Source: a virus (Duplodnaviria; Caudoviricetes). From it: a stretch of 57,341 nt of DNA. The notes below the pieces were generated by a model. That model searched no databases. It saw nothing but the letters and a program-made list of their open reading frames with translations, and was not told the origin of the DNA. The translations under genes were made by a program, and so were the position numbers. Numbering within the stretch: position 1 is the first letter of the stretch; the number at the start of each line of letters is the position of its first letter. Shown here piece after piece: positions 25,389 to 53,304 of the stretch. Location of the stretch: the IMG/VR virus record IMGVR_UViG_3300020034_000017, positions 1-57,341 of that record; one strand, 5' to 3'.

Positions 25389-25413
25389 CGCAGACTATAC
25401 GTCGTGTATAACG
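25389..25413 (+). promoter_or_regulatory. Repeated motif, candidate phage promoter, copy 1 (variant)
   Basis: CGCA-GACTA-TACG-TCGTG-TATAAC-G. Confidence 0.6.
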
Positions 25414-25434
25414 GAGACTACAGAAAGGATGGAA

Positions 25435-25731
25435 ATGCTGAATTTTTCCTGGAACAAAGAACCGGAAAAGCACATTGACAAGGAAATCACTGCTGTCACG
25501 CGGAAGATGCATGATGAAGGAGTAGATTCGGAGAAGTACCCCACGCTGTTGCGCTATCTGGAGCGTCTACACGAGCTGAAGAAGAAGAACAAGCTTCCGC
25601 CCGTTAGCCGCGACACACTCGCAATTGTCGTCGGGAACTTCCTGATCGCACTCGCCATCATCGCATATGAGCAAAAGCATGTGATGACCACGAAGGTGCC
25701 GATCCCGTTCACCAGAACAGGGAAGACCTAG
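25435..25731 (+). CDS. Small membrane-associated protein
   Basis: RBS GAAAGGA; VSRDTLAIVVGNFLIALAIIAYEQ. Confidence 0.7.
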   Translation: MLNFSWNKEPEKHIDKEITAVTRKMHDEGVDSEKYPTLLRYLERLHELKKKNKLPPVSRDTLAIVVGNFLIALAIIAYEQKHVMTTKVPIPFTRTGKT

Positions 25732-25752
25732 TACGACCACCAGAAGTAGATG

Positions 25753-25807
25753 AAAGCATAGAAGCCGTGTGATATTCGAGAGAGTATTACATGGCTTCTA
25801 TGCTTTT
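25753..25807. terminator. Long (about 25 bp) hairpin, likely terminator closing the structural region
   Basis: AAAGCATAGAAGCCGTGTGATATTC-GAGA-GAGTATTACATGGCTTCTATGCTTTT. Confidence 0.8.
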
Positions 25808-26024
25808 CTGGCTGAAAACGCAATTTTCACGACGATTGGTCTTTTTTCTCCTCTGAAAATCCCCGGGGGGAAATTTTCGTGCAACTTTTTGAAAAAACAC
25901 CCAGCTAGATTCCTCTGTAATCGATTTGGTGATCCATTCATGAGTGTTGATCCCCGAAAGTTGCTCAAACAGCTTAGAACGCATTCTAGAGGGGTATCCG
26001 CTGATTTAACGGTTATTTCGCACG

Positions 26025-26049
26025 CGCAAATTCTACATGTTGTATTATG
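26025..26049 (+). promoter_or_regulatory. Candidate phage promoter, copy 2
   Basis: CGCA-AATTC-TACA-TGTTG-TATTAT-G. Confidence 0.75.
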
Positions 26050-26079
26050 GAACAAGACCGTCAATCAAAGGAGCCAACA

Positions 26080-26256
26080 ATGGAGACCCCCGAGACCAAC
26101 GAGCAGGACCAGACCAACTCGAACACCTCTGCGTTCGTCAGTGGCATCGCCTTCGTGGCGATCGTCGCTGTCAGCGTGGTGGGGTTCAGGAAGGTCCGGA
26201 ACAAGCTCGCTGCCCGGAAGGCCAGCCAGACGTTCACCCCAGTGACCGCCGAGTAA
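26080..26256 (+). CDS. Small single-TM protein (cassette gene)
   Basis: RBS AAAGGAG; AFVSGIAFVAIVAVSVVGF followed by basic residues. Confidence 0.75.
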   Translation: METPETNEQDQTNSNTSAFVSGIAFVAIVAVSVVGFRKVRNKLAARKASQTFTPVTAE

Positions 26257-26262
26257 TGATCC

Positions 26263-26294
26263 AAAGTGAGAGTGCCCACAAGCATTCTCATTTT
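26263..26294 (+). terminator. Repeated terminator hairpin, copy A
   Basis: AAAGTGAGAGTGC-CCACAA-GCATTCTCATTTT. Confidence 0.75.
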
Positions 26295-26298
26295 CTCA

Positions 26299-26323
26299 CG
26301 CAAGTTCTACACGCTCTATTATG
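26299..26323 (+). promoter_or_regulatory. Candidate phage promoter, copy 3
   Basis: CGCA-AGTTC-TACA-CGCTC-TATTAT-G. Confidence 0.75.
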
Positions 26324-26354
26324 AGGAATACCCCTCTACAACCAAGGAGCAATC

Positions 26355-26513
26355 ATGAGTGAAGTCCACGACATCACCGAGACGATCCGGGGCCGCGCCA
26401 CCAAGAGCCGCATCCGCAAGGCAATCGCCTTCGCAGGTGCCGCCCTCGTGGGCGCTGCTGCCCTGGCCGTCGTCGCGAAGAAGTCGACCAACTCGGATAC
26501 CCCCGAGCAGTAG
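26355..26513 (+). CDS. Small single-TM protein (52 aa, cassette gene)
   Basis: RBS AAGGAG; MSEVHDITETIRGRATKSRIRKAIAFAGAALVGAAALAVVAKK... Confidence 0.75.
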   Translation: MSEVHDITETIRGRATKSRIRKAIAFAGAALVGAAALAVVAKKSTNSDTPEQ

Positions 26514-26527
26514 AAGAGCAATCCCCC

Positions 26528-26557
26528 AAAGTGAGAGTCCGCAAGGATTCTCATTTT
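26528..26557 (+). terminator. Repeated terminator hairpin, copy B
   Basis: AAAGTGAGAGTCC-GCAA-GGATTCTCATTTT; compensatory base-pair change relative to the other copies. Confidence 0.75.
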
Positions 26558-26561
26558 CTCT

Positions 26562-26586
26562 CGCATCTTTTACATGGTTTGTTATG
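26562..26586 (+). promoter_or_regulatory. Candidate phage promoter, copy 4
   Basis: CGCA-TCTTT-TACA-TGGTT-TGTTAT-G. Confidence 0.75.
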
Positions 26587-26609
26587 GAACCACTACAAAG
26601 GAGATTCTA

Positions 26610-26726
26610 ATGGCAAAGAGGAAGAAGTACAGGATCCGGAGCTTTCTGTTCGACATCATCATGGTGTGCGCAACAGGAGGCCTCTGGCTTATCTGGATTT
26701 TCTGCCGCGAGTCAAGGAACAAGTAG
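26610..26726 (+). CDS. Small membrane peptide (38 aa, cassette gene)
   Basis: RBS AAAGGAG; MAKRKKYRIRSFLFDIIMVCATGGLWLIWIFCRESRNK. Confidence 0.75.
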   Translation: MAKRKKYRIRSFLFDIIMVCATGGLWLIWIFCRESRNK

Positions 26727-26735
26727 AAGTGATCC

Positions 26736-26765
26736 AAAGTGAGAGTGCGCAAGCATTCTCATTTT
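26736..26765 (+). terminator. Repeated terminator hairpin, copy C
   Basis: AAAGTGAGAGTGC-GCAA-GCATTCTCATTTT. Confidence 0.75.
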
Positions 26766-26767
26766 CA

Positions 26768-26792
26768 CGCAGAAAATACATGCACTGTAATG
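26768..26792 (+). promoter_or_regulatory. Candidate phage promoter, copy 5
   Basis: CGCA-GAAAA-TACA-TGCAC-TGTAAT-G. Confidence 0.75.
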
Positions 26793-26851
26793 AGAAGAAG
26801 ATCTGTCTGTATAGACAGCGCTTCTCTTTTTGTCTCATATTTGGAGGACTA

Positions 26852-27094
26852 ATGACAAACGCACAAAAAGAAGAGCTAGCACAAGAAGCCGTCGAGATGT
26901 ACAAGGATGGGATCTCGATTCATATTCCGAAGAAGGTTGCCGTCGGTCTCTTCGGAGCTGTTATCGCCGCCAACGTCGCGACCGTGTTCGTGATGCAGGC
27001 AATGGTTATCGTGGCGAAGCGATTCAAGAAGGATGAAGACGATGCGGACGTTGTGGTGGTCCAAACACAACGTGATGGAAATACTAAGGAGTAA
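26852..27094 (+). CDS. Small single-TM protein
   Basis: RBS TTGGAGGA; VAVGLFGAVIAANVATVFVMQAMVIVA. Confidence 0.7.
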   Translation: MTNAQKEELAQEAVEMYKDGISIHIPKKVAVGLFGAVIAANVATVFVMQAMVIVAKRFKKDEDDADVVVVQTQRDGNTKE

Positions 27095-27119
27095 CGCAGG
27101 ATCTACATCCACTGTAATG
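27095..27119 (+). promoter_or_regulatory. Candidate phage promoter, copy 6
   Basis: CGCA-GGATC-TACA-TCCAC-TGTAAT-G. Confidence 0.75.
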
Positions 27120-27238
27120 AGAAGAGGACGAGACACGCAGGTGTAGCACCAACAAACCAAAAGTTGCTACCCGTCCGGTGCGATCGAGAGATCGCTAATC
27201 ACGGTTTGCGCTGGGCTGTGAACCCTAGACTTCTCATT
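27116..27238 (+). ncRNA. Candidate small structured RNA or leader (about 120 nt)
   Basis: Closing helix AATGAGAAG/CTTCTCATT, internal GCGATC-GAGA-GATCGC hairpin, U-rich tail, no ORF. Confidence 0.55.
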
Positions 27239-27269
27239 TCATTTTGTCTGATGAAAGGACGGAAGCCCG

Positions 27270-28016
27270 TTGACAACACCAGCTATTTTTGACAGAACAA
27301 TCAAAACGCTCAAATCGCATTCACCTGAAATCCTGACCGCCTTCGGGATCACAGGTGTTGCTACAACCGCATATTTGACTGGAAAGGCAACCGTCACTGC
27401 CACGAGACTTGTGGATGAGAGTGAGAGCCGAGGCGGCATCTCTAATGTTCGCAAGCAACGAATCAAGGAGCGTGTACAACTTGTCTGGAAGCTCTACATC
27501 CCAGCAGCCTCTTCGGGTGCCATCACGATTGCTTGCATTTTTGGTGCTCAAAGGGTTAATACTCGTCGGACTACGGCTGCTGTCACGGCGTATACGGTCG
27601 CTGAACGAGCTTTCTCAGAATACCGAGAAAAGGTCGTAGAGCAGATCGGAAAGGGGCCAGAACAGAAAGTTCGTGACAAGATTGCTCAAGATAGGGTAGA
27701 CAAATTTCCGCCTTCTGGGCTAGTTGTCATGGGCACGGGTCATGTTCTGTGCTGTGAGCTGTACACCGGGCGATATTTCCAGAGCGAGATGGAAACGCTC
27801 AAGCAAGCCAGGAACGACATCAATGCAAGAGTCAATCAAGAACGTTGGGTAACGCTGAGTGAGTTCTATGACATCATCGGTCTAGATCACACGTCAGTAT
27901 CTTCCAGCCTTGGGTGGGATGCAGACAAGCTGATGGATATTCAGTTCACGTCTGTTCTTGCTGAGGGTAAGGACCCATGCCTAGCGTTCGACTACAACTA
28001 CGTGAAGCCACTCTAG
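27270..28016 (+). CDS. DUF6353-like membrane-associated protein, paralog 1
   Basis: HSPEILT..G..G...T N-terminus, KLYIPA, C-terminal VTLSEFYDIIGL..LGW. Confidence 0.7.
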   Translation: MTTPAIFDRTIKTLKSHSPEILTAFGITGVATTAYLTGKATVTATRLVDESESRGGISNVRKQRIKERVQLVWKLYIPAASSGAITIACIFGAQRVNTRRTTAAVTAYTVAERAFSEYREKVVEQIGKGPEQKVRDKIAQDRVDKFPPSGLVVMGTGHVLCCELYTGRYFQSEMETLKQARNDINARVNQERWVTLSEFYDIIGLDHTSVSSSLGWDADKLMDIQFTSVLAEGKDPCLAFDYNYVKPL

Positions 28017-28029
28017 AGGAGATATTTGA

Positions 28030-28170
28030 ATGGATGAAACCACAATCGCTGCCATCGAGCTTCCGCCCATGCAGAAGCTGGGTGTGCTCGTGTTGGGCAC
28101 AATCGCAGGATTCGCTGCCGACCATTTCACCAGAAAGGGTGTCACGAAGTTCCTTCTGAACCGACAGTAA
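28030..28170 (+). CDS. Small single-TM protein (46 aa)
   Basis: RBS GAGGAG; KLGVLVLGTIAGFAA. Confidence 0.65.
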   Translation: MDETTIAAIELPPMQKLGVLVLGTIAGFAADHFTRKGVTKFLLNRQ

Positions 28171-28176
28171 ACCATT

Positions 28177-28211
28177 ACCAGAGTGTGTGCTTTGGCATGC
28201 ACTCTGGTTTT
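28177..28211 (+). terminator. Intrinsic terminator
   Basis: ACCAGAGTGTGTGC-TTTG-GCATGCACTCTGGT-TTT. Confidence 0.7.
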
Positions 28212-28233
28212 GCCAGATGAAAGGACGGCATAT

Positions 28234-28488
28234 TTGACTTGGTTCGTATTAGCTGCAGCCGTTCCAGACGGCACACAGATCTTGGCAGTAGATGCTCCAG
28301 TTCGTCGGGACGCCATGATATTTGCTGAGAAGCAGATTCGTGAGGTGTACAAACTTCCGACCAGCTACGAGATCATGGGACAAGTTCTCGAAGAGTGCAC
28401 CACAGAAGAGGAAGCCCGATCGTTTATGGAACGTCTTCGTGACGTCATGGAGAAAGCAAAGGAAAAAGATGCTCAAGCGACCGATTAA
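28234..28488 (+). CDS. Hypothetical protein
   Basis: RBS GAAAGGA before TTG. Confidence 0.6.
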   Translation: MTWFVLAAAVPDGTQILAVDAPVRRDAMIFAEKQIREVYKLPTSYEIMGQVLEECTTEEEARSFMERLRDVMEKAKEKDAQATD

Positions 28489-28945
28489 GTACAAGGATTT
28501 TGATGACCAGGATGTTGAAGAGGAGTTCTACTTCAACATCTCAGAAGCAGAGATCATTGAGCTAGAGCACGAGCACAAGGGCGGAATGTCCGGGTGGTTG
28601 GAAGAGCTTGTCAAAATTGAAGACAACAAAAGACTGTTTGCGGAGTTGAAGAACATTGTCTTGCTTTCGTATGGCGAGAAGTCTCCTGACGGAAAGCAGT
28701 TTGTCAAGAGTCCTGAGATTCGCGCTGGTTTCGAATCCCATGCTGCATACAATGCGCTAATGTACGAGATCTTCTCGGATGAAGGCAATGCGGCCGCTTT
28801 CTTGACTGGCGTCTTCCCAGAGCGAGTTCGCAAAGAAATCGCAGAGAATGCCGCTAAGAGAGCAGCGAAGGATGCCGGTGCTGATTCCCCAGCAGAACCG
28901 AAGCCTCCGCTTCCTCCTACTCCCCCGACTCCACCTACGACTTAA
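28469..28945 (+). CDS. Conserved hypothetical phage protein
   Basis: MLKRPIKYKDFD..EEFYFN..SYGEKSPDGKQFVKS; Pro-rich tail. Confidence 0.7.
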   Translation: MLKRPIKYKDFDDQDVEEEFYFNISEAEIIELEHEHKGGMSGWLEELVKIEDNKRLFAELKNIVLLSYGEKSPDGKQFVKSPEIRAGFESHAAYNALMYEIFSDEGNAAAFLTGVFPERVRKEIAENAAKRAAKDAGADSPAEPKPPLPPTPPTPPTT

Positions 28946-28954
28946 GGAGCCTTT

Positions 28955-29668
28955 ATGGCAGACGAAGAAGAACCGAAGGAAGATGAGCCAAAAGGGAAGG
29001 CCGTCGATCCAAGAGAACCTAAGCCGACTAAGGGCACGGATTACTCCAACGCTCAAAAGAAAGGCGGACGGCAGAAGGTAGAGAAGGCTGAGAAGAACAT
29101 CAAGAAGGTCGTCTCTGGCGAAGTCAAAGTCGAGAAGCGAGGCATCGGTAAGAAGATCAAAGATCTCTTCGTCGCGGCTGATATCAGATCTGTCTGGTCA
29201 TACGTGGCCTTTGATATTCTGATTCCAGCAGCAAAGGGAATGATCGTGGACGGTGTTGCTCGTGGTGCTGATCGATTTGTCTACGGAGATAGCCGTGCAG
29301 CACGACGAAGTGGTGGTCTCGGTGAGCGTTCACGTATCACGTACGGCGGAATCGTCGATCGTGGTCGCGACGAGCGCAGAGATTCTCGTACACGTCCACC
29401 GAGCAACATCGATCGCACTCGACATCCTCGCTCGAACCGAAACGACTATATCTTCACCAGACGAGAAGATGCTGTCGATGTTCTAGACGAGATGTATCGT
29501 GTTCTCGAGGTCTGCGACGTTGTTTCTGTCGGAGACTTCAACGACATGGTTGGACTTCCTTCTCCTCACACAGATCAGAAGTGGGGTTGGGAGGAACTCC
29601 GAGGTGTTGATATTCGTGATGTACGTAGCGGATGGGTGATTGATCTTCCAGACCCCGAGCCAATCTAA
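28955..29668 (+). CDS. Hypothetical protein with DUF6353-like C-terminal motif
   Basis: VVSVGDFNDMVGL..KWGW resembles the C-termini of the neighbouring paralogs. Confidence 0.7.
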   Translation: MADEEEPKEDEPKGKAVDPREPKPTKGTDYSNAQKKGGRQKVEKAEKNIKKVVSGEVKVEKRGIGKKIKDLFVAADIRSVWSYVAFDILIPAAKGMIVDGVARGADRFVYGDSRAARRSGGLGERSRITYGGIVDRGRDERRDSRTRPPSNIDRTRHPRSNRNDYIFTRREDAVDVLDEMYRVLEVCDVVSVGDFNDMVGLPSPHTDQKWGWEELRGVDIRDVRSGWVIDLPDPEPI

Positions 29669-29685
29669 CGCAAAGGAGGTTGGGT

Positions 29686-29820
29686 GTGGATACGAATCAG
29701 CAAAGGGAAGCATTACTAAAGGTGTACCCGCACTGGACCGACAAGGTGAAGAAGATGTCTGAGGCTCAGGTCACAGCCATTTTCCTACGGCTTCAATCTC
29801 AAGGAAAGTTGGGTAAATGA
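29686..29820 (+). CDS. Small hypothetical protein (44 aa)
   Basis: RBS AAAGGAGG; ..VYPHWTDKVKKMSEAQVTAIFLRL. Confidence 0.65.
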   Translation: MDTNQQREALLKVYPHWTDKVKKMSEAQVTAIFLRLQSQGKLGK

Positions 29821-30698
29821 TGAAATTCGTACCTACAGGTGTGACACGGCTAGTTGGTAAAACCATGTTGCAGACGAAGAAGAACTCGCCGCATATTTTC
29901 TTCGCTGCTGGAGTAACCGGAGTGTGTGTCAGTACGTTTCTCGCTTGTCGAGCAACTCTGAAGCTGGAGCCAGTTCTAGATCAGATGAAGGACAATCTTG
30001 ACAGAGCGAAGCGAAAGCCTGACGTTGCTGAAAGAAACGGAATCGGATATTCTGATTCTGAACATCGACGAGAGATGGCTCATGTGTACTTCCAGGGAGG
30101 CAAAGAACTAGGTAAGCTTTATGGTCCCGCTTTCGTTGTGGGAGCGGCATCCATTACTGCACTCACAGGTTCACATGTTCAGCTTTCTCGTCGCAATGCT
30201 GCTCTCACGGCTGCATACGCTGGTATCGCTCAGGCACTCGAAGAGTACCGAGGGCGTGTCAGGGCGGAGGTCGGCGATGAGAAGGAGAGTGATATTTGGC
30301 TCGGAGTCGAAGAGCAGACTATCACAGATGAAGATGGCAAGAAGCAAAAGATCAAGGTTGCAGCAAATCCGGAGCGTCATTCTCGATTCTTCGATCAGAA
30401 ATGCGGTAACTGGAAGCCAGATCCAGATTACAACCGTTTCTTCTTGCAATCTCAGCAGAACTTCTGGAATCAGCGACTCCATGCCTTCGGGTATGTCTTC
30501 CTGAACGACGTTTACGAGTCACTCGGCTATGAGCGAACCAGCGATGGTCAGCTTCTTGGTTGGACTGTGGACTCAGGGGAAGGCTATATTTCGTTCGGGC
30601 TTGAGGATCATCTGAACGTCAAGAATCGAGATGTTCTGGGATGGAGTCAGCTTCTCACGTTCAACATCGACACAACCGTAATGTACCACAAGATCTAG
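29817..30698 (+). CDS. DUF6353-like protein, paralog 2
   Basis: KNSPHIFFAAG, KLYGPA, QQNFWNQRL..GYVFLNDVYESLG..LGW. Confidence 0.7.
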   Translation: MMKFVPTGVTRLVGKTMLQTKKNSPHIFFAAGVTGVCVSTFLACRATLKLEPVLDQMKDNLDRAKRKPDVAERNGIGYSDSEHRREMAHVYFQGGKELGKLYGPAFVVGAASITALTGSHVQLSRRNAALTAAYAGIAQALEEYRGRVRAEVGDEKESDIWLGVEEQTITDEDGKKQKIKVAANPERHSRFFDQKCGNWKPDPDYNRFFLQSQQNFWNQRLHAFGYVFLNDVYESLGYERTSDGQLLGWTVDSGEGYISFGLEDHLNVKNRDVLGWSQLLTFNIDTTVMYHKI

Positions 30699-30710
30699 GA
30701 GGGATCCGTT

Positions 30711-31574
30711 ATGAACGAGCGCATTGCTCATATTTTCAAGAGCCCCTGGACGATTCCATCGGCTGTTGGCGTTGTTGCGTTCGGAGGAGGTGTTGGTCTA
30801 GGTTATATTCTCGGTAAGCGAAAGGCTGAGAAGGATCTGGACGCGCAGTTTACCAACGTCTCTTACGATGAGGTCAAGGATTACTTGGCAGGTGACGGAG
30901 ACGATGAAGTCCATGAGTTCTTCGACACAGAAGGAATGGCTAGGCAACGAGTGATCATCGACGAAGAGGCATACCATTCTCCAGCGGTTATTCCGGAGAC
31001 GGATGCTGAGATTGGACCAAATGGCGATACCGTCATCGTGCGACCTCAAGACTTCGGCGAGGAGCATCTGGAGGACGATATTTCCGAGAAGTCGTTCGAG
31101 GAAGAGTTGCGAGAAGGCACTCCTCACGAAGACACCGAGGAACCGGATTTCGAGCCTGTTCATGTTAACGTTTTCGATGATGGCAACTGGGATTGGGAGA
31201 TCGAAGTTGCTGCTCGAGAAGCTCTCAACCCCGGCACGCCGTATATCCTGCATCGAGACGAGTTCTACAGAAACGAGTTCGACTACACCCAGACCACACT
31301 CGCATATTACGAAGGTGATGAAACCGTGGTCGTCGAAGGAGAGCAGGAGCCTCTCTTTGATTTCCAAAGGTTGACGGGTGAGCTGAACTTTGGTCACGGA
31401 TCAGGGGATCCAAACGTCGTTCTCATTCGCAACGACGAACGACGAGCCGAGTACGAGATTTGTCGTAACGAAGGACATTTCGCAAAGGAAGTTCTCGGGT
31501 ACGAGGCTGAGCAACGAGCAGAAGCCAAAGACCTGAAGCACTCCCGAGTCGGAAGGTTCCGGGACGAGGACTAA
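30711..31574 (+). CDS. Membrane-anchored acidic protein
   Basis: N-terminal TM (AVGVVAFGGGVGLGYILG); acidic body. Confidence 0.7.
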   Translation: MNERIAHIFKSPWTIPSAVGVVAFGGGVGLGYILGKRKAEKDLDAQFTNVSYDEVKDYLAGDGDDEVHEFFDTEGMARQRVIIDEEAYHSPAVIPETDAEIGPNGDTVIVRPQDFGEEHLEDDISEKSFEEELREGTPHEDTEEPDFEPVHVNVFDDGNWDWEIEVAAREALNPGTPYILHRDEFYRNEFDYTQTTLAYYEGDETVVVEGEQEPLFDFQRLTGELNFGHGSGDPNVVLIRNDERRAEYEICRNEGHFAKEVLGYEAEQRAEAKDLKHSRVGRFRDED

Positions 31575-31576
31575 CC

Positions 31577-32095
31577 ATGGCTGAGCCTCTTGAAGAGACA
31601 TATTTCAAGTGGCTTTGCGCAAAAGTACGCAAAAACTCAGGCTCACACCACTACAACCTGTTTAGAATCCTTCACAACACCGAGTTCACTTGGGTTGTGA
31701 GTATGGACAGGAACAGAGCAGCGGATGGGCGGGAACTCCGAGAGTATTACTGCACTGCAGCATATGTTCGAAAAGATCGGATCTGGTTCGGAGAACCATG
31801 TTCGGTACTCGAGATGCTAATTGCATTTGCTGATCGGGCTTCATATCAGACAGACATGCCGCTGAGAGACTGGTTTTGGCAGTTCATGATCAATCTCAAG
31901 CTTGACGGATACAGCGGAGTAAGTAGGTCTGATGAACCGTACATCGAGGAGATTCTCTATATCTTCTTGGCTAGACAGTACGACGAGTGTGGCGACGGAG
32001 GTTTGTTTCCGTTGCGCAAGCCATGTAAACGCGATCAAAGAAGGAGGGAACTCTGGTATCAGCTGTTTGACTACTTGGACGACCAGGGCATCTGA
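31577..32095 (+). CDS. Conserved hypothetical protein upstream of the replicase
   Basis: YFKWLC..DRNRAADG..CSVLEMLI..GGLFP..ELWYQ. Confidence 0.7.
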   Translation: MAEPLEETYFKWLCAKVRKNSGSHHYNLFRILHNTEFTWVVSMDRNRAADGRELREYYCTAAYVRKDRIWFGEPCSVLEMLIAFADRASYQTDMPLRDWFWQFMINLKLDGYSGVSRSDEPYIEEILYIFLARQYDECGDGGLFPLRKPCKRDQRRRELWYQLFDYLDDQGI

Positions 32096-32106
32096 AAGGA
32101 GGGGTA

Positions 32107-35100
32107 TTGGATTTCTATAACATCGTAATTCGAGAGAATGAGAAGAAAGGTACCCTTCAGATTCGTCCTGATTGGCGAGTAGGTCCATCAAATGATCTAA
32201 TGACTAGGTCTGGTTCGTTCTATGCTGTTTGGGACGAACAGAGAGGACTTTGGTCACAGAACATCTACGATGTGGCACGTCTGGTCGACGCAGATCTCAT
32301 GCGATATTCCAGAGAACAGCAGAAGAAGACTGGGCTACCGTACGACGTAGCTAGGTTGGAGATCAACAGCACAAAGCTGTGGGATGAGTTCCAGAGGTTC
32401 ATCCGTAACAGTGGTAGTAACAGCGTCAATCTGGATGAGCGTCTCGTATTTGCCAACACCGAGGTCAAGAAGACGGATTACGCCTCCAAGCGTCTTTCAT
32501 ATTCTCTCGCTGCTGGTCCATACGATGCATGGGACACCATTGTTGGGACTCTTTTCAATGAAGAGGAACGAGCCAAGATCGAGTGGGCCATAGGAGCAGT
32601 TGTTTCTGGTGATAGCAGGTTCATCCAGAAGTTCCTCGTTTTCTATGGTCCACCGGCCAGCGGCAAGTCCACCATTCTCAACATCATCCACAAGATGTTC
32701 AATGGCTACACAGCAGTGTTCGACGCTCGAGAACTGGCAGCTAGCGGCAACTCGTTTGCTGCATCTGCTTTCAAATCGAATCCTCTTGTAGCCATTCAAC
32801 ATGATGGTGATCTGTCCCGGATATACGACAATACAAAGCTGAACTCAATTGTTGCTCATGAGATCATCCCGATCAACGAGAAGTACAAAGCCGTGGTCGA
32901 ATCTCGATCAAATGCGTTTCTGTTTATGGGAACCAACCTACCGGTCAAGATTTCGGACGCCAAATCAGGCATCATCCGACGTCTGATCGACGTTATTCCC
33001 ACACAGCAGATGATCGAGAACAGTCACTATCATCGTTTGATGGAGCAAGTCAACGGCGAACTTGGGGCAATTGCTCAGCATTGTCTGGACGTATATTCGA
33101 CGATGGGTAGGAACTACTACAGTGGTTACCGCCCAACTGAGATGATGCTCCAGACAGACGTGTTCTACAACTTCGTCGAGGCACACTTTGATATCTTCAA
33201 GGAGCAAGACGGCGTTACCTTGAAGCAAGCTTGGGAGCTCTACAAGACATACTGCCAGGAGACAGGCATCGAGAAGATGCTTCCTCAGTACAAGATTCGG
33301 GAAGAGTTGAAAAACTACTTCTACGTGTTCGAAGAGCGAGCACGCATTGACGGGCACAATGTCCGTTCATATTACCAGGGGTTCAAGAACCTCACTTCCA
33401 CTCCAACCGCCGAGATCCCGATCAAACCAGAAGGCGTCTACGAGATCGTCTTGCAAGAACAACCATCGGTCTTCGACGTACAATATCCTGGGCTGTTGGC
33501 ACAGTACAAGCACGAAGAAGAGGATCGACCTGAGCACAAGTGGATCAATGTCACGACAACGTTGTCGGATATTGACACGTCGAAGTTGCACTATGTCAAG
33601 GTTCCTGAGCAGCATATTGTCATCGATCTTGATCTGACTGACGAAGATGGCAACAAGAGCCTTGAGGCTAATCTGAAGAAGGCAGCAGAGTTCCCACCGA
33701 CTTATGCAGAGGTAAGCAAGAGCGGACAAGGCTTGCACCTCCACTATATCTACACGGGTGACGTTCGAGAACTGGCTTCTGTGTACAACGTTGGAATCGA
33801 GGTCAAGACACTTCTTGGGGACAGTTCCCTGCGGAGAAAATTGACTCTTTGCAACAACATGAACATCACTCCTCTTGACGGAGGTTTGCCTAAGAAGGAG
33901 AAGCCCGTGATCTCGGATAAGAGCATCAAGACCGAAAGGGGGCTTCGTGAACTCATCATCAGGAATCTGCGCAAGGAGATCAATGCGGGCACCAAGCCTT
34001 CTGTCGATTTCATCCATCACATCCTCGAAGAAGCTTACAATTCGGGTATGTCTTACGACGTAAGAGACATGCGAAGTGATATTCTCACGTTCGCTGCCAG
34101 GAGTTCTAACCAAGCTGCAGCGTGTATCAAGCTGGTACAGCAAATGCAGTTTGTTGGGCAGAACTCCATGGAAGAAGTTGAACCGGGGGATGGCCCCATT
34201 GTCTTCTTTGATGTTGAGGTATACCCGAACCTGTTCGTCGTATGTTGGAAAGCTGAAGACTCGGATACGGTCGTACGAATGATCAACCCGGCTCCGAAGG
34301 AGATGGAAGGTCTGTTCGCCATGAAGCTGGTTGGCTTCAACTGCCGGCGATACGACAACCACATCATCTACGCTCGGTATCTCGGATATTCGTTGGAGCA
34401 GCTCTTCGAACTTAGCCAGAAGATCATCGCTGGCGGGAACGACAAAACGATGCTCTTTGGGGAAGCATACAACCTCTCGTATGCGGATATCTACGACTAC
34501 AGTGCCAAGAAGCAAGGGCTCAAGAAGTTCATGATCGAGTACGACGTTCCTCACATGGAACTTGATATTCCGTGGGATGAGCCTGTTCCGGAAGGAATGT
34601 GGGACAAGATTGTAGACTACTGTGTAAACGACGTTCTCGGCACAGAGACTACACACAAAGAACGTAAGCAAGACTTCGTCGCTCGGCAAATCCTTGCCGA
34701 AATTTCAGGGTTGTCTGTCAATCACACGACGCAAGCACACACTGCCAAGATCATTTTCGGTGAGGACAGGAACCCGCAGCGAGCGTTTGTTTACACGGAT
34801 CTGAGTGAAATGTTCCCAGGCTACAAGTTCGATGGAAAGGAGAGTACCTACCGTGGGGAAGTCACTGGTGAGGGTGGTTACGTCTACGCAGAACCCGGCG
34901 TGTATGAAAACGTCGCCCTTCTGGACGTTGCGTCCATGCATCCGACGAGTATCGAGCGTCTCAACCTATTCGGTCCATACACCGAGCGTTTTGCCGATCT
35001 CAAAACAGCGAGAATGGCAATTAAGCGTAAGGATGACGAGGCAGCCGCTAGGCTATTGGGAGGTAAACTCGAGAAGTTTGTGGGCGGCAGCGATGCAGAT

Positions 35101-35859
35101 CGTGAAGCTCTATCGTACGCCCTCAAAATCGTAATCAATACTGTTTACGGTTTGACGAGTGCACGATTTGAGAATGCTTTCCGAGACAATCGCAACAAGG
35201 ACAACATCGTAGCCAAGCGTGGCGCTTTGTTCATGGTCGATCTGAAGGTTGCTGTTCAAGAGAAGGGATTCCAGGTTGCGCACATCAAGACTGACTCCAT
35301 TAAGATCCCGAATGCCAACCAAGACATCATCGATTTCGTTGTCGAATTTGGTAGGCAATACGGTTACGATTTCGAGCACGAAGGAACATATGACAAATTC
35401 ATTCTCGTCAATGATGCGGTCTATATTGCTCGAACCGGAGACAAGTGGACTGCAGTGGGTGCACAGTTCCAACACCCCTACGTCTTCAAGAAGCTCTTCA
35501 CACACGAACCAGTAGTCTTCAATGATTTCTGTGAGACAAAGAACGTCATTCAGGGAGCAATGTACATGGACTTCGTTGGATCCGAGGATCTGAAGGACAT
35601 GGTTCATGTTGGGCGCACTGGTAGCTTCGTGCCAGTCACTGAAGGGGGCGGAACTCTCTGGCGTGTCAAAGACGACAAGAAGTACGCCGTCACTGGCACC
35701 AAGGGATATTCTTGGGTTGTCCGAGACGTTGCTCGAAGCATGAACGATGCTGACATGCTAAACATCGATTCTTCATATTTCGAGGATCTGAAGGCAAAAG
35801 CTATTGAAGCGATCATGCAGTTCGACACACTAGGTGACTTCGAGCAAATCATTTCCTAA
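32107..35859 (+). CDS. Fused SF3 helicase / AEP primase / 3'-5' exonuclease / DNA polymerase
   Basis: Walker A GPPASGKST and MGTN (SF3); IDLD..SKSGQGLHLHY (AEP); FDVEV, GFN..YD, YCVNDV (exonuclease); DVASMHP, KIVINTVYG, KTDS (B-family-like polymerase motifs). Confidence 0.88.
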   Translation: MDFYNIVIRENEKKGTLQIRPDWRVGPSNDLMTRSGSFYAVWDEQRGLWSQNIYDVARLVDADLMRYSREQQKKTGLPYDVARLEINSTKLWDEFQRFIRNSGSNSVNLDERLVFANTEVKKTDYASKRLSYSLAAGPYDAWDTIVGTLFNEEERAKIEWAIGAVVSGDSRFIQKFLVFYGPPASGKSTILNIIHKMFNGYTAVFDARELAASGNSFAASAFKSNPLVAIQHDGDLSRIYDNTKLNSIVAHEIIPINEKYKAVVESRSNAFLFMGTNLPVKISDAKSGIIRRLIDVIPTQQMIENSHYHRLMEQVNGELGAIAQHCLDVYSTMGRNYYSGYRPTEMMLQTDVFYNFVEAHFDIFKEQDGVTLKQAWELYKTYCQETGIEKMLPQYKIREELKNYFYVFEERARIDGHNVRSYYQGFKNLTSTPTAEIPIKPEGVYEIVLQEQPSVFDVQYPGLLAQYKHEEEDRPEHKWINVTTTLSDIDTSKLHYVKVPEQHIVIDLDLTDEDGNKSLEANLKKAAEFPPTYAEVSKSGQGLHLHYIYTGDVRELASVYNVGIEVKTLLGDSSLRRKLTLCNNMNITPLDGGLPKKEKPVISDKSIKTERGLRELIIRNLRKEINAGTKPSVDFIHHILEEAYNSGMSYDVRDMRSDILTFAARSSNQAAACIKLVQQMQFVGQNSMEEVEPGDGPIVFFDVEVYPNLFVVCWKAEDSDTVVRMINPAPKEMEGLFAMKLVGFNCRRYDNHIIYARYLGYSLEQLFELSQKIIAGGNDKTMLFGEAYNLSYADIYDYSAKKQGLKKFMIEYDVPHMELDIPWDEPVPEGMWDKIVDYCVNDVLGTETTHKERKQDFVARQILAEISGLSVNHTTQAHTAKIIFGEDRNPQRAFVYTDLSEMFPGYKFDGKESTYRGEVTGEGGYVYAEPGVYENVALLDVASMHPTSIERLNLFGPYTERFADLKTARMAIKRKDDEAAARLLGGKLEKFVGGSDADREALSYALKIVINTVYGLTSARFENAFRDNRNKDNIVAKRGALFMVDLKVAVQEKGFQVAHIKTDSIKIPNANQDIIDFVVEFGRQYGYDFEHEGTYDKFILVNDAVYIARTGDKWTAVGAQFQHPYVFKKLFTHEPVVFNDFCETKNVIQGAMYMDFVGSEDLKDMVHVGRTGSFVPVTEGGGTLWRVKDDKKYAVTGTKGYSWVVRDVARSMNDADMLNIDSSYFEDLKAKAIEAIMQFDTLGDFEQIIS

Positions 35860-35868
35860 AGGAGGATA

Positions 35869-36051
35869 ATGGATTCTGAAGCGTTGATTCCACCAGAGGA
35901 CTGGGTTACTCATCCAAACCCTGGGTATGATGAGTCCTGTCCTACTTGTTCGTCTCTAGTAGAAAACCGTGCTATTCATAGAGAATGGCATATTGCGATA
36001 GTTGAACGAGCAGATCGTCATGTTCCAGCTCCTAGATACGGAGGAGGATGA
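35869..36051 (+). CDS. Small Cys/His (Zn-finger-like) protein
   Basis: CPTC..H..WH; RBS AAGGAGG. Confidence 0.6.
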   Translation: MDSEALIPPEDWVTHPNPGYDESCPTCSSLVENRAIHREWHIAIVERADRHVPAPRYGGG

Positions 36052-36333
36052 ATGGACGAAATTCAAGAGAAGGAGTATGCCGAAGGACTGAAACCGACGA
36101 AGTATATTCTCGGGGACAAGACGACCGACGGTCATACCCATGTCTTCTATCTGAGGACCGAGCTTCCCATTGCTACAACGACAGATGACTGGGAAGCAAC
36201 TTATCCTCATGCTCATTCTATAGAGGAAGGACCCGATTTCACAGTAATCTGCGTTGAAGAAGCTGGTCACACGCACACCAAACTCGTAATCGAAGAAGCA
36301 GGGGACTACCTTCCTCGGACGCTTCATATCTGA
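36052..36333 (+). CDS. His-rich hypothetical protein
   Basis: GHTH, PHAH, GHTH repeats; RBS GGAGGAGG. Confidence 0.6.
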   Translation: MDEIQEKEYAEGLKPTKYILGDKTTDGHTHVFYLRTELPIATTTDDWEATYPHAHSIEEGPDFTVICVEEAGHTHTKLVIEEAGDYLPRTLHI

Positions 36334-36344
36334 AAGGAACACCA

Positions 36345-38648: not shown

Positions 38649-38649
38649 T

Positions 38650-38846: not shown

Positions 38847-38871
38847 CGCAGAAAAAACATGCAGTATAATG
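38847..38871 (+). promoter_or_regulatory. Candidate phage promoter, copy 7
   Basis: CGCA-GAAAA-AACA-TGCAG-TATAAT-G. Confidence 0.7.
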
Positions 38872-44321: not shown

Positions 44322-44398
44322 GCCTCTGTAGCTCAGTTGGTTAGAGCAGCGGCCTTTTAAGCCGATGGTCGAAGGTTCGAATCCTTCCAGGGGCACCA
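44322..44398 (+). tRNA. tRNA-Lys(UUU)
   Basis: Acceptor GCCTCTG/CAGGGGC, D arm GCTC/GAGC, anticodon loop CTTTTAA, GGTTCGAATCC T arm, encoded CCA. Confidence 0.93.
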
Positions 44399-44424
44399 TA
44401 TTCGACTACCTATTTGGAGGAGCA

Positions 44425-44751
44425 ATGGAAATCGAAGTTCAATACGACGAGACTAGTACCAGCTGGAACCCAAGCGGATCGTACAACCACATGTTCTTGC
44501 TGGCACAGCAGAACTACTTCAACCAAAGGCTCCAGAGCTTCGGTTTTGTGATCCTTAACGAAGTATATGAGGCTCTTGGTATTCCTCGTACGACGCAAGG
44601 ATGCATCACCGGTTGGGTCTTGCTTCACGACGACCATATTGACTTCGGTTTGGATCAGGTGGAGAACTGGTGCGCCGCGACACTGCGTCTGAACGTCAAG
44701 GGGATCATGTTCGGATACATCGACATGATCAACCGGGCGGTGACATCATGA
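44425..44751 (+). CDS. Stand-alone DUF6353-like C-terminal domain
   Basis: QQNYFNQRLQSFGFVILNEVYEALGIPRT..GW aligns with the C-terminus of 29817..30698. Confidence 0.7.
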   Translation: MEIEVQYDETSTSWNPSGSYNHMFLLAQQNYFNQRLQSFGFVILNEVYEALGIPRTTQGCITGWVLLHDDHIDFGLDQVENWCAATLRLNVKGIMFGYIDMINRAVTS

Positions 44752-45928: not shown

Positions 45929-45953
45929 CGCAGTAAATACACGCGCTATAATG
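45929..45953 (+). promoter_or_regulatory. Candidate phage promoter, copy 8
   Basis: CGCA-GTAAA-TACA-CGCGC-TATAAT-G. Confidence 0.75.
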
Positions 45954-46063: not shown

Positions 46064-46088
46064 CGCAGTTCCTACATGGTGTATTATG
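46064..46088 (+). promoter_or_regulatory. Candidate phage promoter, copy 9
   Basis: CGCA-GTTCC-TACA-TGGTG-TATTAT-G. Confidence 0.75.
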
Positions 46089-46340: not shown

Positions 46341-46365
46341 CGCAGAGCGTACATGCTTTGTAATG
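46341..46365 (+). promoter_or_regulatory. Candidate phage promoter, copy 10
   Basis: CGCA-GAGCG-TACA-TGCTT-TGTAAT-G. Confidence 0.75.
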
Positions 46366-46485: not shown

Positions 46486-46701
46486 ATGGTAATTATCAAG
46501 GTTAGTTTCACCAATCTTCACTTGATTACCGCATTAAATGCTGGGGTGATCCCGAACATCGATGAAGAGAACCCTATGTTTTTGATCATGGAGAGCGGAG
46601 AGGTAAATCGCATCATCTCGTCAGAGGAGCTACATGAGATTTCTACTACGAAGAAGTTGAATTTGAGAACGGTAGAGATTTTCTACGCATCTTTTACATA
46701 G
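46486..46701 (+). CDS. Hypothetical protein
   Basis: RBS AGGAGG. Confidence 0.6.
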   Translation: MVIIKVSFTNLHLITALNAGVIPNIDEENPMFLIMESGEVNRIISSEELHEISTTKKLNLRTVEIFYASFT

Positions 46702-46710
46702 GTTGTAATG
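46686..46710 (+). promoter_or_regulatory. Candidate phage promoter, copy 11
   Basis: CGCA-TCTTT-TACA-TAGGT-TGTAAT-G. Confidence 0.75.
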
Positions 46711-50452: not shown

Positions 50453-50463
50453 GGAGGTGATTC

Positions 50464-51672
50464 ATGGAGCTGATGGAACACCAGGAGAAGGTTGTCGACC
50501 AACTGGACAGCGGTAAGATCCTGCACGGAGGCACAGGAAGTGGGAAGTCAGCTGCAGCCATGGCTTGGTATCATCGATACGAGCGACCAAAGCATCTGTA
50601 TGTCATCACCACCGCCAAGAAGCGTGACACTCTGGACTGGGAGAAAATCGCTGCAGCTTTCGGTATCTCTGGGTCGGTCTTTCTGGAAGATGAGGAGTAC
50701 CTGAAGTACGCAGGTGTTCTGACAGTTGATAGTTGGAATAACATTGGAAACTACGTAGATGTTGAGGACGCTGTATTCATCTTCGACGAGCAGCGAGTTG
50801 TGGGATACGGTGCGTGGGTCAAGGCGTTTCTGAAGATTGCTAAGAAGAACCGCTGGATTCTGCTGACCGCTACGCCTGGTGACACGTGGACAGACTACAT
50901 GCCGGTGTTCGTCGCGAACGGTTGGTACAAGAACAAGACGGAATTCGACCGTAAGCACATTCTGTACGAGCCTTTCCGTAAGTATCCGGTGATTGCTGGG
51001 TATCTGAATGTTGGCAAGCTCGAGATGATGCGCAACGAAGTACTGGTCGAGATGCCATACGACATGCACACCGAACGGATGCTGAACTGGCTTCCTGTTG
51101 ACCACGATCTGGAGCTCTTCAAGAGAGCATACAAAGATCGTTGGCATGTGTACGAAGAGCGACCGATTCGTGATGTTGCAGAGATGTTCCGCGTACTCAG
51201 ACGCATAGTCAACTCGGATCTTAGTCGACTGGAGATGATCAGAAAGCTGTTCAAGTGTCATGATCGGTTGATCATCTTCTACAACTTCGACTACGAGCTC
51301 GACATACTGAGGGGGTTGGAAAGCTCGGTATCTGTGTACGAATGGAACGGCCATCAGAAGGATCATAACGTCACATTCGAGGACGAAGATCGCTGGGTTT
51401 ACCTGGTTCAGTACGTGGCTGGAGCTGAGGCGTGGAACTGTACGAAAACAGACGCAATGGTCCTTTATTCCCTTACATACAGCTACAAAAACTTCCTACA
51501 GGCACAGGGGCGAATTGACCGTCTTGACACGCTTTACACTTGGCTCTACTACTACATCCTGATAAGCAACTCAATAGTCGACCGAGGGATCCGAAAGAGT
51601 CTGGATGCAAAAGAGAATTTCAACGAAAGGAAGTTTGTTCAAAAGGAACTAGAAGGAGAATGGGATGATTGA
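50464..51672 (+). CDS. SF2 DNA helicase (SNF2/DExx-like)
   Basis: GTGSGKS, FDEQ, LTATPG, QAQGRIDR motifs. Confidence 0.9.
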   Translation: MELMEHQEKVVDQLDSGKILHGGTGSGKSAAAMAWYHRYERPKHLYVITTAKKRDTLDWEKIAAAFGISGSVFLEDEEYLKYAGVLTVDSWNNIGNYVDVEDAVFIFDEQRVVGYGAWVKAFLKIAKKNRWILLTATPGDTWTDYMPVFVANGWYKNKTEFDRKHILYEPFRKYPVIAGYLNVGKLEMMRNEVLVEMPYDMHTERMLNWLPVDHDLELFKRAYKDRWHVYEERPIRDVAEMFRVLRRIVNSDLSRLEMIRKLFKCHDRLIIFYNFDYELDILRGLESSVSVYEWNGHQKDHNVTFEDEDRWVYLVQYVAGAEAWNCTKTDAMVLYSLTYSYKNFLQAQGRIDRLDTLYTWLYYYILISNSIVDRGIRKSLDAKENFNERKFVQKELEGEWDD

Positions 51673-52141
51673 AGAATGGGTGGTTATTGAGGAGGCATCA
51701 AACTATCTGGTAAGTAATCTAGGTAGGGTCTATAGCAAAACTACCAATAGAATTCTCAAGCCGGGTATGGGTGGTCAAGGAGCCTACCCGTTTGTTGTTC
51801 TTTCAAATGGGGGTCCACAGTTCAACCGATATGTACACGTGCTAGTCGCCGAAACTTTCGTTACGAATTGGGACAACAAACCCGAAGTTAATCACATCGA
51901 CGGCAATCATACCAACAATGAATACTGGAACCTAGAATGGGCAACCCACAAAGAAAACATGGAGCATGCGTCCATAATGGGTCTAATGGGAAAAAGGGTG
52001 AAAATTGTCGAAACTGGCGAGGTTTTCAAGAGTTTGACCGCTTGTGCGCGTGCCATAAACGGGCAGCCAGGAAACATAAGTCACTGTTTGAGTGGCCGAA
52101 GAAGGTCACATCGAGGTTTTACGTTTGAATTGATAGACTGA
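51665..52141 (+). CDS. NUMOD4-HNH homing endonuclease with C-terminal NUMOD1-like domain
   Basis: YLVSNLGRV, VHVLVAETF, VNHIDGNHTNN..NLEWAT..EN, FKSLTACARAI. Confidence 0.85.
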   Translation: MIEEWVVIEEASNYLVSNLGRVYSKTTNRILKPGMGGQGAYPFVVLSNGGPQFNRYVHVLVAETFVTNWDNKPEVNHIDGNHTNNEYWNLEWATHKENMEHASIMGLMGKRVKIVETGEVFKSLTACARAINGQPGNISHCLSGRRRSHRGFTFELID

Positions 52142-52288
52142 AATGGAGATGAAATAGTGATGTCCAATTCTTCCGACTTTGGCATACGATTCAGATTTGA
52201 CAAACGTGGCACCGATGGGATTATACTGAAGTACACTAAAAAGTCGCTGAAATAGGGTCTTTATGTGTACATACGGTACATTTCATAG

Positions 52289-52431
52289 ATGTGTCAAATC
52301 TGATCGATTTAGAGCTAAAAACTCTCTACTACAGAACCTACTACATACGCTCTTTTCCTGCCCGCGTAAAGGAAGTAAGCGTATGTAGTGCGATCTTCAC
52401 TAGAGAGTTTTGGATTATGGATTTGACACAT
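52289..52431. repeat. Nested long inverted repeat (candidate origin/cruciform)
   Basis: ATGTGTCAAATC/GATTTGACACAT, AAAACTCTCTA/TAGAGAGTTTT, ACTACATACGCT/AGCGTATGTAGT, TTCCT/AGGAA. Confidence 0.75.
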
Positions 52432-52472
52432 TATTTGACACACGAGTCTAACCACACCAAATTGGAGGCGAA

Positions 52473-52772
52473 ATGGGACTTCTAAACGAATTAATCTTTA
52501 CTGAGGCAGTTGAGCAGGTTCAGGCGATTCTCACGTCTCAGAGCTCCGACGAGATTAGCGATCGTCTGGAAGCGATTGTCAAGATCGAGGATTTGGCACT
52601 GGCGTGCCTCATGTTGCTAGCTATGAAGGCTAAGGGTATTGACATATCTGATGCTAATGGAATTGAGATGGCAAACGCCCAACCAACAATCGCGGATCTC
52701 ATCATTGCTAGTCCAGGAACACCTATCGACGCATATGTGATTCTACCATCGAGAGGAGGACAACATGAGTAA
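52473..52772 (+). CDS. Hypothetical protein
   Basis: RBS TGGAGG. Confidence 0.6.
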   Translation: MGLLNELIFTEAVEQVQAILTSQSSDEISDRLEAIVKIEDLALACLMLLAMKAKGIDISDANGIEMANAQPTIADLIIASPGTPIDAYVILPSRGGQHE

Positions 52773-53268
52773 TCCTTCATGGAGCAGAATTCCAGAGTTT
52801 CCAAACTACATCATCAATGACCGTGGTGAGATCTTCAATCTATCCGCAGATCAGTACATGCGTGTCTATCCAAATACGTATGGACACATGAGAATCACTT
52901 TGACCAATGTCGAAACCGGTAAGCGGTATGATCGTGGAGTTGCTAAACTCGTTGCAGAGGCCTTTGTAGAGCCACCTAACGATCTCTGCACTCGTGTCAT
53001 GATACTCGATGGGCAATTGTTCCACGTAAGTGCTCAGAACCTCGTGTGGCGGCCAATGTGGTTTGTCATGCGATACTCTCGGCAATTGAAACGAGATCAT
53101 CCAGCTCACTATAGTAATCTTCGAATCAAGAACGTCGAGACAGGTAAGCGATACGACAACATCATTGAATGTGCTATGGCCGAAGGTCTTCTCTTTGACG
53201 ATGTCTGGAGATCAACTTTCAGTGGTGCAAAGATCTTCCCATATGGTGATACCTTCGAGATTGTCTAA
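52765..53268 (+). CDS. NUMOD4-domain protein with degenerate HNH site
   Basis: WSRIPEFPNYIINDRGEI, VAKLVAEAFV, NLVW; catalytic His replaced. Confidence 0.65.
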   Translation: MSNPSWSRIPEFPNYIINDRGEIFNLSADQYMRVYPNTYGHMRITLTNVETGKRYDRGVAKLVAEAFVEPPNDLCTRVMILDGQLFHVSAQNLVWRPMWFVMRYSRQLKRDHPAHYSNLRIKNVETGKRYDNIIECAMAEGLLFDDVWRSTFSGAKIFPYGDTFEIV

Positions 53269-53279
53269 GCGTATGTCCT

Positions 53280-53304
53280 GGCACGCAAAACATGTATTGT
53301 AATG
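53280..53304 (+). promoter_or_regulatory. Candidate phage promoter, copy 12 (variant), heading the operon that contains the RNAP gene
   Basis: GGCA-CGCAA-AACA-TGTAT-TGTAAT-G. Confidence 0.6.

Follow-up and report, generated by a model that had tools for sequence, protein, structure and literature searches.

The stretch of DNA analysed here is a whole virus record of IMG/VR (IMGVR_UViG_3300020034_000017), about 95% complete and 57,341 nucleotides (nt) long, and is referred to as the window. Its right arm carries twelve copies of a tripartite motif, and the gene for a predicted RNA polymerase of 917 amino acids (aa) lies close to its right end. A sequence-only reading of the window had taken the motif, CGCA-N5-TACA-N5-TRTWATG, for a promoter recognised by this polymerase. 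We call CGCA box 1, TACA box 2 and TRTWAT box 3, and count motif positions from the first letter of box 1, so that the closing G is position 25 (G25). The twelve copies and the two genes named in the argument below are as follows (ORF, open reading frame).

25389..25413, + strand: copy 1, with 2 mismatches to the consensus; 2 nt past the stop codon of ORF 25019-25387, with the start codon at 25429 lying 16 nt on
26025..26049, + strand: copy 2, with a 31-nt leader to the gene at 26080-26256
26299..26323, + strand: copy 3, directly 3' of a hairpin and T-run (-16.8 kcal/mol)
26562..26586, + strand: copy 4, directly 3' of a hairpin and T-run (-18.7 kcal/mol)
26768..26792, + strand: copy 5, with the top matrix score (40.5); a hairpin and T-run before it (-19.6 kcal/mol), and a hairpin starting at G25 with a T-run after it
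27095..27119, + strand: copy 6, 1 nt past the stop codon of ORF 26531-27094, with a 151-nt leader to the gene at 27270-28016 (DUF6353)
38847..38871, + strand: copy 7, with AACA as box 2, followed by a hairpin starting at G25 (-21.3 kcal/mol)
45929..45953, + strand: copy 8
46064..46088, + strand: copy 9, preceded by a hairpin and T-run (-21.5 kcal/mol)
46341..46365, + strand: copy 10, 3' of the terminator-like repeat that also precedes copies 3-5 (-17.5 kcal/mol)
46686..46710, + strand: copy 11
53280..53304, + strand: copy 12, the poorest match of the set (GGCA, AACA), in a position that is conserved in relatives; the polymerase gene starts 949 nt downstream
53672..54232, + strand: exonuclease-family gene (phrog_3953), directly upstream of the polymerase gene in the copy-12 operon
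54229..56982, + strand: predicted 917-aa two-barrel single-chain RNA polymerase (GADFDGD, fold match, phrog_4291)

Searched exactly, the consensus matched the window nine times, always on the + strand, where 100 shuffles led us to expect 0.00 matches. With up to two mismatches allowed there were 12 matches against 0.24 expected (shuffle maximum 2), and these fall on precisely the twelve coordinates given by the sequence-only reading. The consensus is fixed in one respect only: strand and spacing are the same in 12/12 copies, but the letters are exact in just 9/12, with two mismatches at 25389, one at 38847 and two at 53280. A 32-nt weight matrix was then built from the twelve copies and scanned on both strands. 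The copies score between 26.5 and 40.5, with no intermediate scores, and no further position in the window reaches 10 on either strand, a level at which shuffles yield 0-3 matches. The list of copies is therefore complete and sharply bounded. The scan was likewise empty across positions 1-25388, the arm that holds the lysis, head and tail genes, in keeping with the earlier remark that the head/tail operon lacks the motif.

An information profile of the copies lengthens the motif to (C)A-CGCA-N5-TACA-YG-N3-TRTWAT-G-RRRA. Position 20 is A in 6/12 and G in 6/12 copies, so that half of them do have TG in the last box, as first described; position 25 is G in 12/12, and positions 26-29 are rich in purines. 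All twelve copies sit in intergenic gaps or at gene junctions, and the next plausible start codon follows G25 after a leader of 16-151 nt. A strong hairpin with a T-run lies directly 5' of five copies (26299, 26562, 26768, 46064 and 46341; -16.8 to -21.5 kcal/mol). The placement at gene boundaries, often directly after terminators, thus stands as it had been described. The claim that RNA helices begin at the final G stands in part: a helix of meaningful energy has its 5' arm starting exactly at G25 in 4/12 copies (26299, 26768, 38847 and 53280). Such helices fit an RNA beginning there, but are anecdotal.

After copies 5, 7 and 12 a hairpin that starts from G25 runs into a T-run (26792-26835, 38871-38930 and 53304-53350; -13 to -21 kcal/mol). 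They may serve as stem-loops that stabilise the 5' end, as leader attenuators or as small RNAs.

The polymerase carries GADFDGD, a DxDGD metal-binding loop, at residues 507-513, and D509, F510, D511, G512 and D513 are invariant across 28 family sequences. It matches phrog_4291, labelled 'RNA-dependent RNA polymerase' in PHROGs, over its full length. An AlphaFold model of the protein (predicted local distance difference test score, pLDDT, 74.3; predicted template modelling score, pTM, 0.55) gave its best Foldseek matches to QDE-1 (E 1.5e-7), then to gp64 and gp62 of P23-45-type Thermus phages (E 5e-5 and 8e-5); the gp64-relative structures PDB 8f72 and 8f5m were among the best fold matches, and plant RDR2 and bacterial beta' among the further ones. 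Since the template modelling (TM) scores are low (~0.3), the fold match covers the core and not the whole chain. The GADFDGD loop and these fold neighbours place the protein in the two-barrel class, and on the predicted structure it is a YonO/QDE-1-type single-chain RNA polymerase, with RNA synthesis as its predicted activity. A T7-type identity was considered and is out, because Pfam shows no T7-type RNA polymerase family in the protein and the fold is two-barrel.

The protein also carries candidate helix-turn-helix (HTH) modules at both ends. At the C-terminus an HTH_23 match covering residues 883-916 exceeds the Pfam cut-off (27.9 versus 24.6 bits), and a Sigma70_r4_2 match to the same stretch falls just under its own (23.8 versus 25.7 bits). 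Near residues 49-70 and 80-104 lie two further, weaker segments that resemble an HTH, both below the Pfam threshold. By tblastn, 250 deposited phage genomes have a homologous gene, which lies at the right end of the genome in nearly every case, and 215 IMG/VR stretches encode a relative. Koert et al. (bioRxiv 10.1101/842583) had earlier flagged the same family as a 'putative RNA polymerase'; the available text of that preprint describes the DxDGD motif, HTH domains at both ends and an HHpred link to PF05183 (P=95.68%), and gives as the range of the family the actinophage supercluster together with Lactococcus and Faecalibacterium phages.

The motif recurs in related genomes. We picked ten relatives with known hosts for carrying the polymerase gene, and the same boxes, spacing and coding strand were found in 10/10, with 7-16 sites each: 13 in Rima and 7 in RosaAsantewaa (both Streptomyces), 7 in Mudcat (Arthrobacter), 11 in Untouchable (Gordonia), 16 in ReqiPepy6 (Rhodococcus), 10 in Yotsuba (Curtobacterium), 9 in DizzyRudy (Microbacterium), 10 in P092 and 11 in CHPC971 (both Lactococcus), and 16 in FP_oengus (Faecalibacterium). 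With the 12 of the window this makes 122 curated sites in 11 genomes, and 122/122 are on the coding strand. A single pooled matrix returned 116 forward versus 1 reverse match over the 11 genomes, and 87 matches on the polymerase strand versus 2 on the opposite strand over 80 metagenomic loci. In a de novo 8-mer screen, CTATAATG, TATAATGA, CCCTATAA and CTATAGTG came out near the top of the strand-specific words for Rima, Untouchable, ReqiPepy6 and P092. The layout is conserved as well: in the 10 collinear genomes (the window and nine relatives, with RosaAsantewaa curated) the tail genes are closely followed by the first site, 0.43-0.53 of the way along the genome, and in all 10 the sites are concentrated where the right arm begins.

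For comparison, five control phages from the same host genera were analysed (ReqiDocB7, ReqiPine5, phiC31, sk1 and c2; Rhodococcus, Streptomyces and Lactococcus). A polymerase homologue was found in 0/5, and the motif occurs in these five at chance level, with 0-2 forward matches versus 0-2 for a reversed control pattern. Motif and polymerase co-occur across two bacterial phyla of hosts. The motif thus appears to be present with the polymerase gene and absent without it, in a comparison whose control set is small (n=5).

Variants of the motif seem to track the phage and not the host. The two Lactococcus lactis phages differ from each other (TTTA..TATAAT-G versus CACA..TATAGT-A), the two Streptomyces phages have unlike versions of box 3, and one Streptomyces phage and one Gordonia phage have nearly identical motifs. 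The sequence-only reading had raised the question of whether motif and polymerase vary together. Their divergences correlate (Mantel r 0.79, with 0/5000 permutations as high), but shared ancestry would give the same result. A more specific lead comes from P092, the only genome in which box 1 is TTTA (CGCA, CGCG or CACA in the others) and the only one in which the conserved ESSVR helix of the second N-terminal HTH is missing, with PGSVTN in its place. This single event is a lead on which HTH module may read box 1. It is the one clear case of covariation between recognition helices and boxes in the 11 genomes, too few to count.

In Rima, Untouchable and ReqiPepy6 the leader that follows the motif is almost invariant (GAGACCCCTAYGAAAGGA, ending in a Shine-Dalgarno sequence), and the putative promoter and its 5' untranslated region appear to behave as one conserved module across phages of three host genera. 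Motif copies also stand directly before apparent tRNA genes in relatives, at 23581 and 23969 in P092, at 41174 in ReqiPepy6 and at 2910 in FP_oengus; these tRNA genes were called by eye from TAGCTCAG-type sequence, without ARAGORN.

Copy 12 does head the operon that contains the polymerase gene, as had been proposed: the ORFs 53360-53662, 53672-54232 (exonuclease family) and 54229-56982 (polymerase) lie downstream of it. It belongs to a distinct, weaker variant of the motif (..AACATG-N3-TNTAAT-A/G-GAAGGGA), which is found 907-974 nt upstream of the polymerase start in 7/11 genomes; at 42/76 metagenomic loci a match lies 858-1249 nt upstream of that start. The record of FP_oengus is permuted, and on it the exonuclease and polymerase genes lead without interruption, by way of a small ORF, to those for terminase, portal, capsid and tape measure; no copy of the motif lies between them. 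On the contig L009, homologues of the ORFs at the left end of the window come after the polymerase gene. Because of these two gene orders, copy 12 probably heads a long late operon once the genome ends join. The sequence-only reading had suggested positive feedback through this copy. That is one possible account of its position, but a late operon that makes a virion-borne polymerase fits at least as well.

A polymerase carried in the virion is suggested by this placement together with two further observations. Phage 1706 of Lactococcus has a full-length homologue, orf75 (37% identity, E 5e-177), which was deposited as a 'structural protein', and the record note of ReqiPepy6 gp106 quotes that label. 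The label reportedly originates from virion mass spectrometry. In addition, the N-terminus of the polymerase shares a tag with the head-region ORFs starting at 8086 and 10648, which match Pfam DUF7211. This tag could be a capsid-targeting signal. Taken together, the polymerase is probably carried in the virion and would start early transcription after injection. Virion-borne polymerases are known from N4, crAss-like and P23-45 phages (PMC10770324).

The tag itself (..IIDE..L.HYG..GMKWG..) matches DUF7211 in the ORFs 7181-8098 (twice), 8086-8616 and 10648-10983. A diverged form stands at the N-terminus of the polymerase (54229-54310), where it is below the Pfam threshold, and in all 10 homologues examined.

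The comparative evidence, namely co-occurrence, the polymerase-less controls, the poor fit to host promoters described below and the position of copy 12, all favours a promoter class tied to the 917-aa polymerase. The twelve sites are very probably promoters, and it is likely that the phage polymerase reads them directly. We put a probability of roughly 0.62 on the reading as a whole, that of a phage-specific transcription system in which twelve promoters would be read by a 917-aa polymerase with HTH modules at both ends. The HTH modules would bind the upstream boxes CGCA and TACA, whose starts lie 9 base pairs (bp) apart; the A/T-rich box 3 (TRTWAT) would melt; and the RNA would begin at or beside the invariant G25, giving purine-rich 5' ends (GAGA.., GGAA.., AGAAG..). 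Eleven copies would drive the short early or middle cassettes in the right arm, many of which are bounded by terminator hairpins, and the weaker copy 12 would drive the exonuclease-polymerase operon, which would run into the promoter-free lysis, head and tail genes once the ends join. With the polymerase packed in the virion and injected, early transcription would neither await nor depend on the host enzyme. A stronger form of this scheme seems doubtful to us: a sigma-free, self-sufficient system in which each box is read by one of three fused HTH modules (two at the N-terminus and a sigma-region-4-like one at the C-terminus), the enzyme is capsid-borne and injected, and the whole supercluster of Actinobacteria and Firmicutes siphoviruses transcribes from early to late genes without host polymerase.

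Several points weigh against a phage-polymerase promoter class. Pfam (E up to 0.001) returned only HTH families for the polymerase and did not match RdRP PF05183, no PDB sequence was matched by phmmer or by the 28-sequence profile, and a literature search turned up no biochemical characterisation of this polymerase family. The polymerase gene itself lies behind a copy of the motif, which calls for virion delivery or for something else to fire first. Shared phage ancestry, or another conserved phage factor, would also yield the Mantel correlation and the co-occurrence. The sites of the relatives were gathered with matrices seeded from the window-derived pattern of boxes 2 and 3. In RosaAsantewaa only 7/16 matrix matches were kept and 9 were dropped by eye: the refined matrix had drifted into coding sequence (16 matches at a threshold of 14.8, with a reverse-strand maximum of 13.8), and the pooled matrix gave 7 forward and 0 reverse matches there. 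Three more such points, the resemblance of box 3 to a -10 element, the host-type terminators and a published sigma-70 reading, are shared with the next explanation.

The best surviving alternative, which we regard as unlikely, is that box 3 serves as a -10 element for the host RNA polymerase and its primary sigma factor, and that a phage activator binds boxes 1 and 2. T4 middle promoters (MotA/AsiA) are the model for a phage activator working with the host polymerase. Boxes 1 and 2 sit where a -35 or -30 element would, the RNA would start about 7 nt past box 3, and the activator might be the 917-aa protein, acting through its HTH modules. Box 3 is indeed TATAAT or TATAGT in most relatives, with a perfect TATAAT in 15/16 sites of ReqiPepy6, 10/10 of P092 and 7/7 of Mudcat, and 86/122 sites fit TANNNT. 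Many sites follow hairpins with T-runs, the signal of a host-type enzyme, and the cassettes are bounded by such hairpins, which resemble intrinsic terminators. For boxes 1 and 2 to be conserved from host to host, a conserved phage DNA-binding protein would suffice, with no need of a polymerase. The announcement of Gordonia phage Vardy (cluster DJ) read a 50-bp motif as a sigma-70 promoter (PMC9671010), which is this same interpretation.

On the other side, the fit to a sigma-70/sigma-A promoter is poor. The remaining 36/122 sites lack A2 or T6 of the -10 element (7/12 in the window, 16/16 in FP_oengus), and by eye no shifted register rescues them. TANNNT is matched in 5/12 sites of the window (the others being TGTAAT and TGTTAT variants), 2/7 in RosaAsantewaa (TTAAAT), 4/10 in Yotsuba (TTTAAT) and 0/16 in FP_oengus (CTTTAT). 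Box 3 also varies between phages of the same host. A -35-like hexamer (at least 4/6 to TTGACA, 16-18 bp upstream) accompanies 3/12 sites in the window and 22/122 overall. A sigma-70 consensus scan of positions 24500-40000 flagged 1/6 copies in that stretch and found 9 sigma-70-like sites versus 13.2 in shuffles, fewer than in shuffled sequence.

The sequence after box 3 also speaks for a phage enzyme. Position 25 is a purine in 121/122 sites, the bases that follow are 74-98% purine, and a conserved purine-rich block (GAGACC.., AGAAGG..) stands right after box 3 in 11/11 genomes, which is not usual for sigma-A promoters. A purine-rich initial transcribed sequence is typical of phage-polymerase promoters. 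A Pfam scan of 30 right-arm ORFs found no sigma factor or other transcription factor, and so no separate activator, and the HTH modules belong to a protein whose polymerase active site is intact and invariant in 28 sequences.

That the sites are no promoters at all, but binding sites of a regulator (a repressor, an antiterminator loader, a partition or packaging protein) or an RNA-level signal, with transcription starting elsewhere, is highly improbable: HTH proteins commonly bind short phased boxes, and motif and leader are conserved in relatives as a longer unit that is a possible RNA element, but the strand bias is strict, the sites come directly behind terminators, with start codons following after 16-151 nt, some relatives' sites lie directly before the apparent tRNA genes called by eye, the sites gather at the head of the right arm in every collinear genome, and no promoters of another class show up there, with sigma-70-like sites fewer than in shuffles.

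A further candidate came from the 8-mer screen. SATATT words such as CATATTTG were considered as a second promoter class for the window and rejected: most lie inside ORFs, apparently as codon pairs (GAT ATT, CAT ATT), and a few copies precede Shine-Dalgarno sequences. The SATATT words have a strong strand bias genome-wide (28 forward versus 6 reverse for CATATT).

The remainder of the window holds other features, given below. Compared with the DNA of deposited phages, the window gave a match over a 48-bp ligase stretch only. With positions 25000-34999 as the query, the window DNA was present in three soil metagenome sequencing runs, all three DNA, and no RNA run was listed.

3836-4360: membrane-anchored, Rpf-type transglycosylase-like protein (PF06737)
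5349-6071: endolysin with CHAP and PG_binding_1, near the Rpf-type protein
27270-28016, 29817-30698 and 44365-44751: three paralogous DUF6353 proteins, the first directly downstream of copy 6
36953-37351: Tad3, an inhibitor of type I Thoeris (Pfam E 2.4e-31), an anti-defence gene in the right arm
41973-42737: protein with a C-terminal S-layer-homology (SLH) domain
44322-44398: tRNA-Lys (UUU), the single tRNA gene

The Rpf-type protein and the CHAP endolysin point to an actinobacterial host, though the phage has a G+C content of only about 50%. An identical ribosome-binding context, CATATTTGGAGGACTAATG, occurs at 26836-26854 and 39947-39965, at two distant genes.

A few phages are known to have single-chain relatives of cellular RNA polymerases (YonO, crAss-like gp66, and P23-45 gp64 and gp96), and how such minimal enzymes find promoters without a sigma factor is largely an open question. 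The present analysis matches a large family of such predicted enzymes with a sharply delimited candidate promoter, conserved from Streptomyces to Lactococcus phages; the enzyme has fused HTH modules that could read it. The promoter question is testable in cultivable hosts, including Gordonia, Streptomyces, Arthrobacter and Lactococcus lactis. If the pairing is real, the annotation of hundreds of SEA-PHAGES genomes ('helix-turn-helix DNA-binding protein', 'sigma-70 promoter') would change, Gram-positive synthetic biology would gain a compact orthogonal pair of polymerase and promoter, and the motif would be a simple marker of the early genes of these phages, among which are anti-defence genes such as the Tad3 homologue.

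Among known systems, T7 and SP6 promoters are compact (about 25 bp), lie on one strand in many copies, and combine an upstream recognition part with an A/T-rich part before +1 and a purine-rich initial transcript; weaker promoter variants drive other gene classes. The motif set described here resembles them in logic only, as the polymerase is of the two-barrel type. Its likeness to sigma-70/sigma-A promoters lies in box 3, which resembles and often equals TATAAT; it differs from them in that the -35 element is missing, the A at -11 is lost in several lineages and the block after box 3 is conserved.

YonO of the Bacillus prophage SPbeta is, like the polymerase of the window, a phage-encoded single polypeptide with the DxDGD site known from multisubunit polymerases, and it transcribes a defined set of phage genes (PMC5467207). 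Its promoter sequence is undetermined according to that paper. The polymerase described here differs in having an HTH module or modules at either end and a set of candidate promoters. The term 'helix-turn-helix' has 0 occurrences in the available text of the YonO paper (PMC5467207); the two are set apart by description and not by sequence.

The P23-45 enzymes, the virion RNA polymerase gp96 and the non-virion RNA polymerase gp64, are likewise two-barrel single-chain phage polymerases (PMC10770324). Each has its own motif, one AT-rich and one GC-rich, mapped by ONT-cappable-seq and ChIP-seq, and that study used the same logic as we do, namely that relatives having the enzyme have the motif and relatives lacking it do not (PMC10770324). 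In contrast to P23-45, there is one polymerase here and not two, the motifs are unrelated, and the promoters are predicted where those of P23-45 were mapped. The virion enzyme of P23-45 is moreover fused to the tape measure protein (PMC10770324), unlike the polymerase of the window.

The five copies reported in Vardy probably belong to the same motif class, because Untouchable, a relative in cluster DJ, has 11 sites; the 'TATAAT' motif of the Vardy announcement (PMC9671010) is likened to ours by cluster and description, not by sequence. The study of Koert et al. (bioRxiv 10.1101/842583) concerns the same protein family, and its available text contains neither the word 'promoter' nor a DNA motif, a virion link or a transcription scheme. 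Our literature search found no text that joins the motif to the polymerase, shows its conservation across phyla or proposes a transcription scheme. The protein family and the 'TATAAT motif' of one phage had each been noted before, separately.

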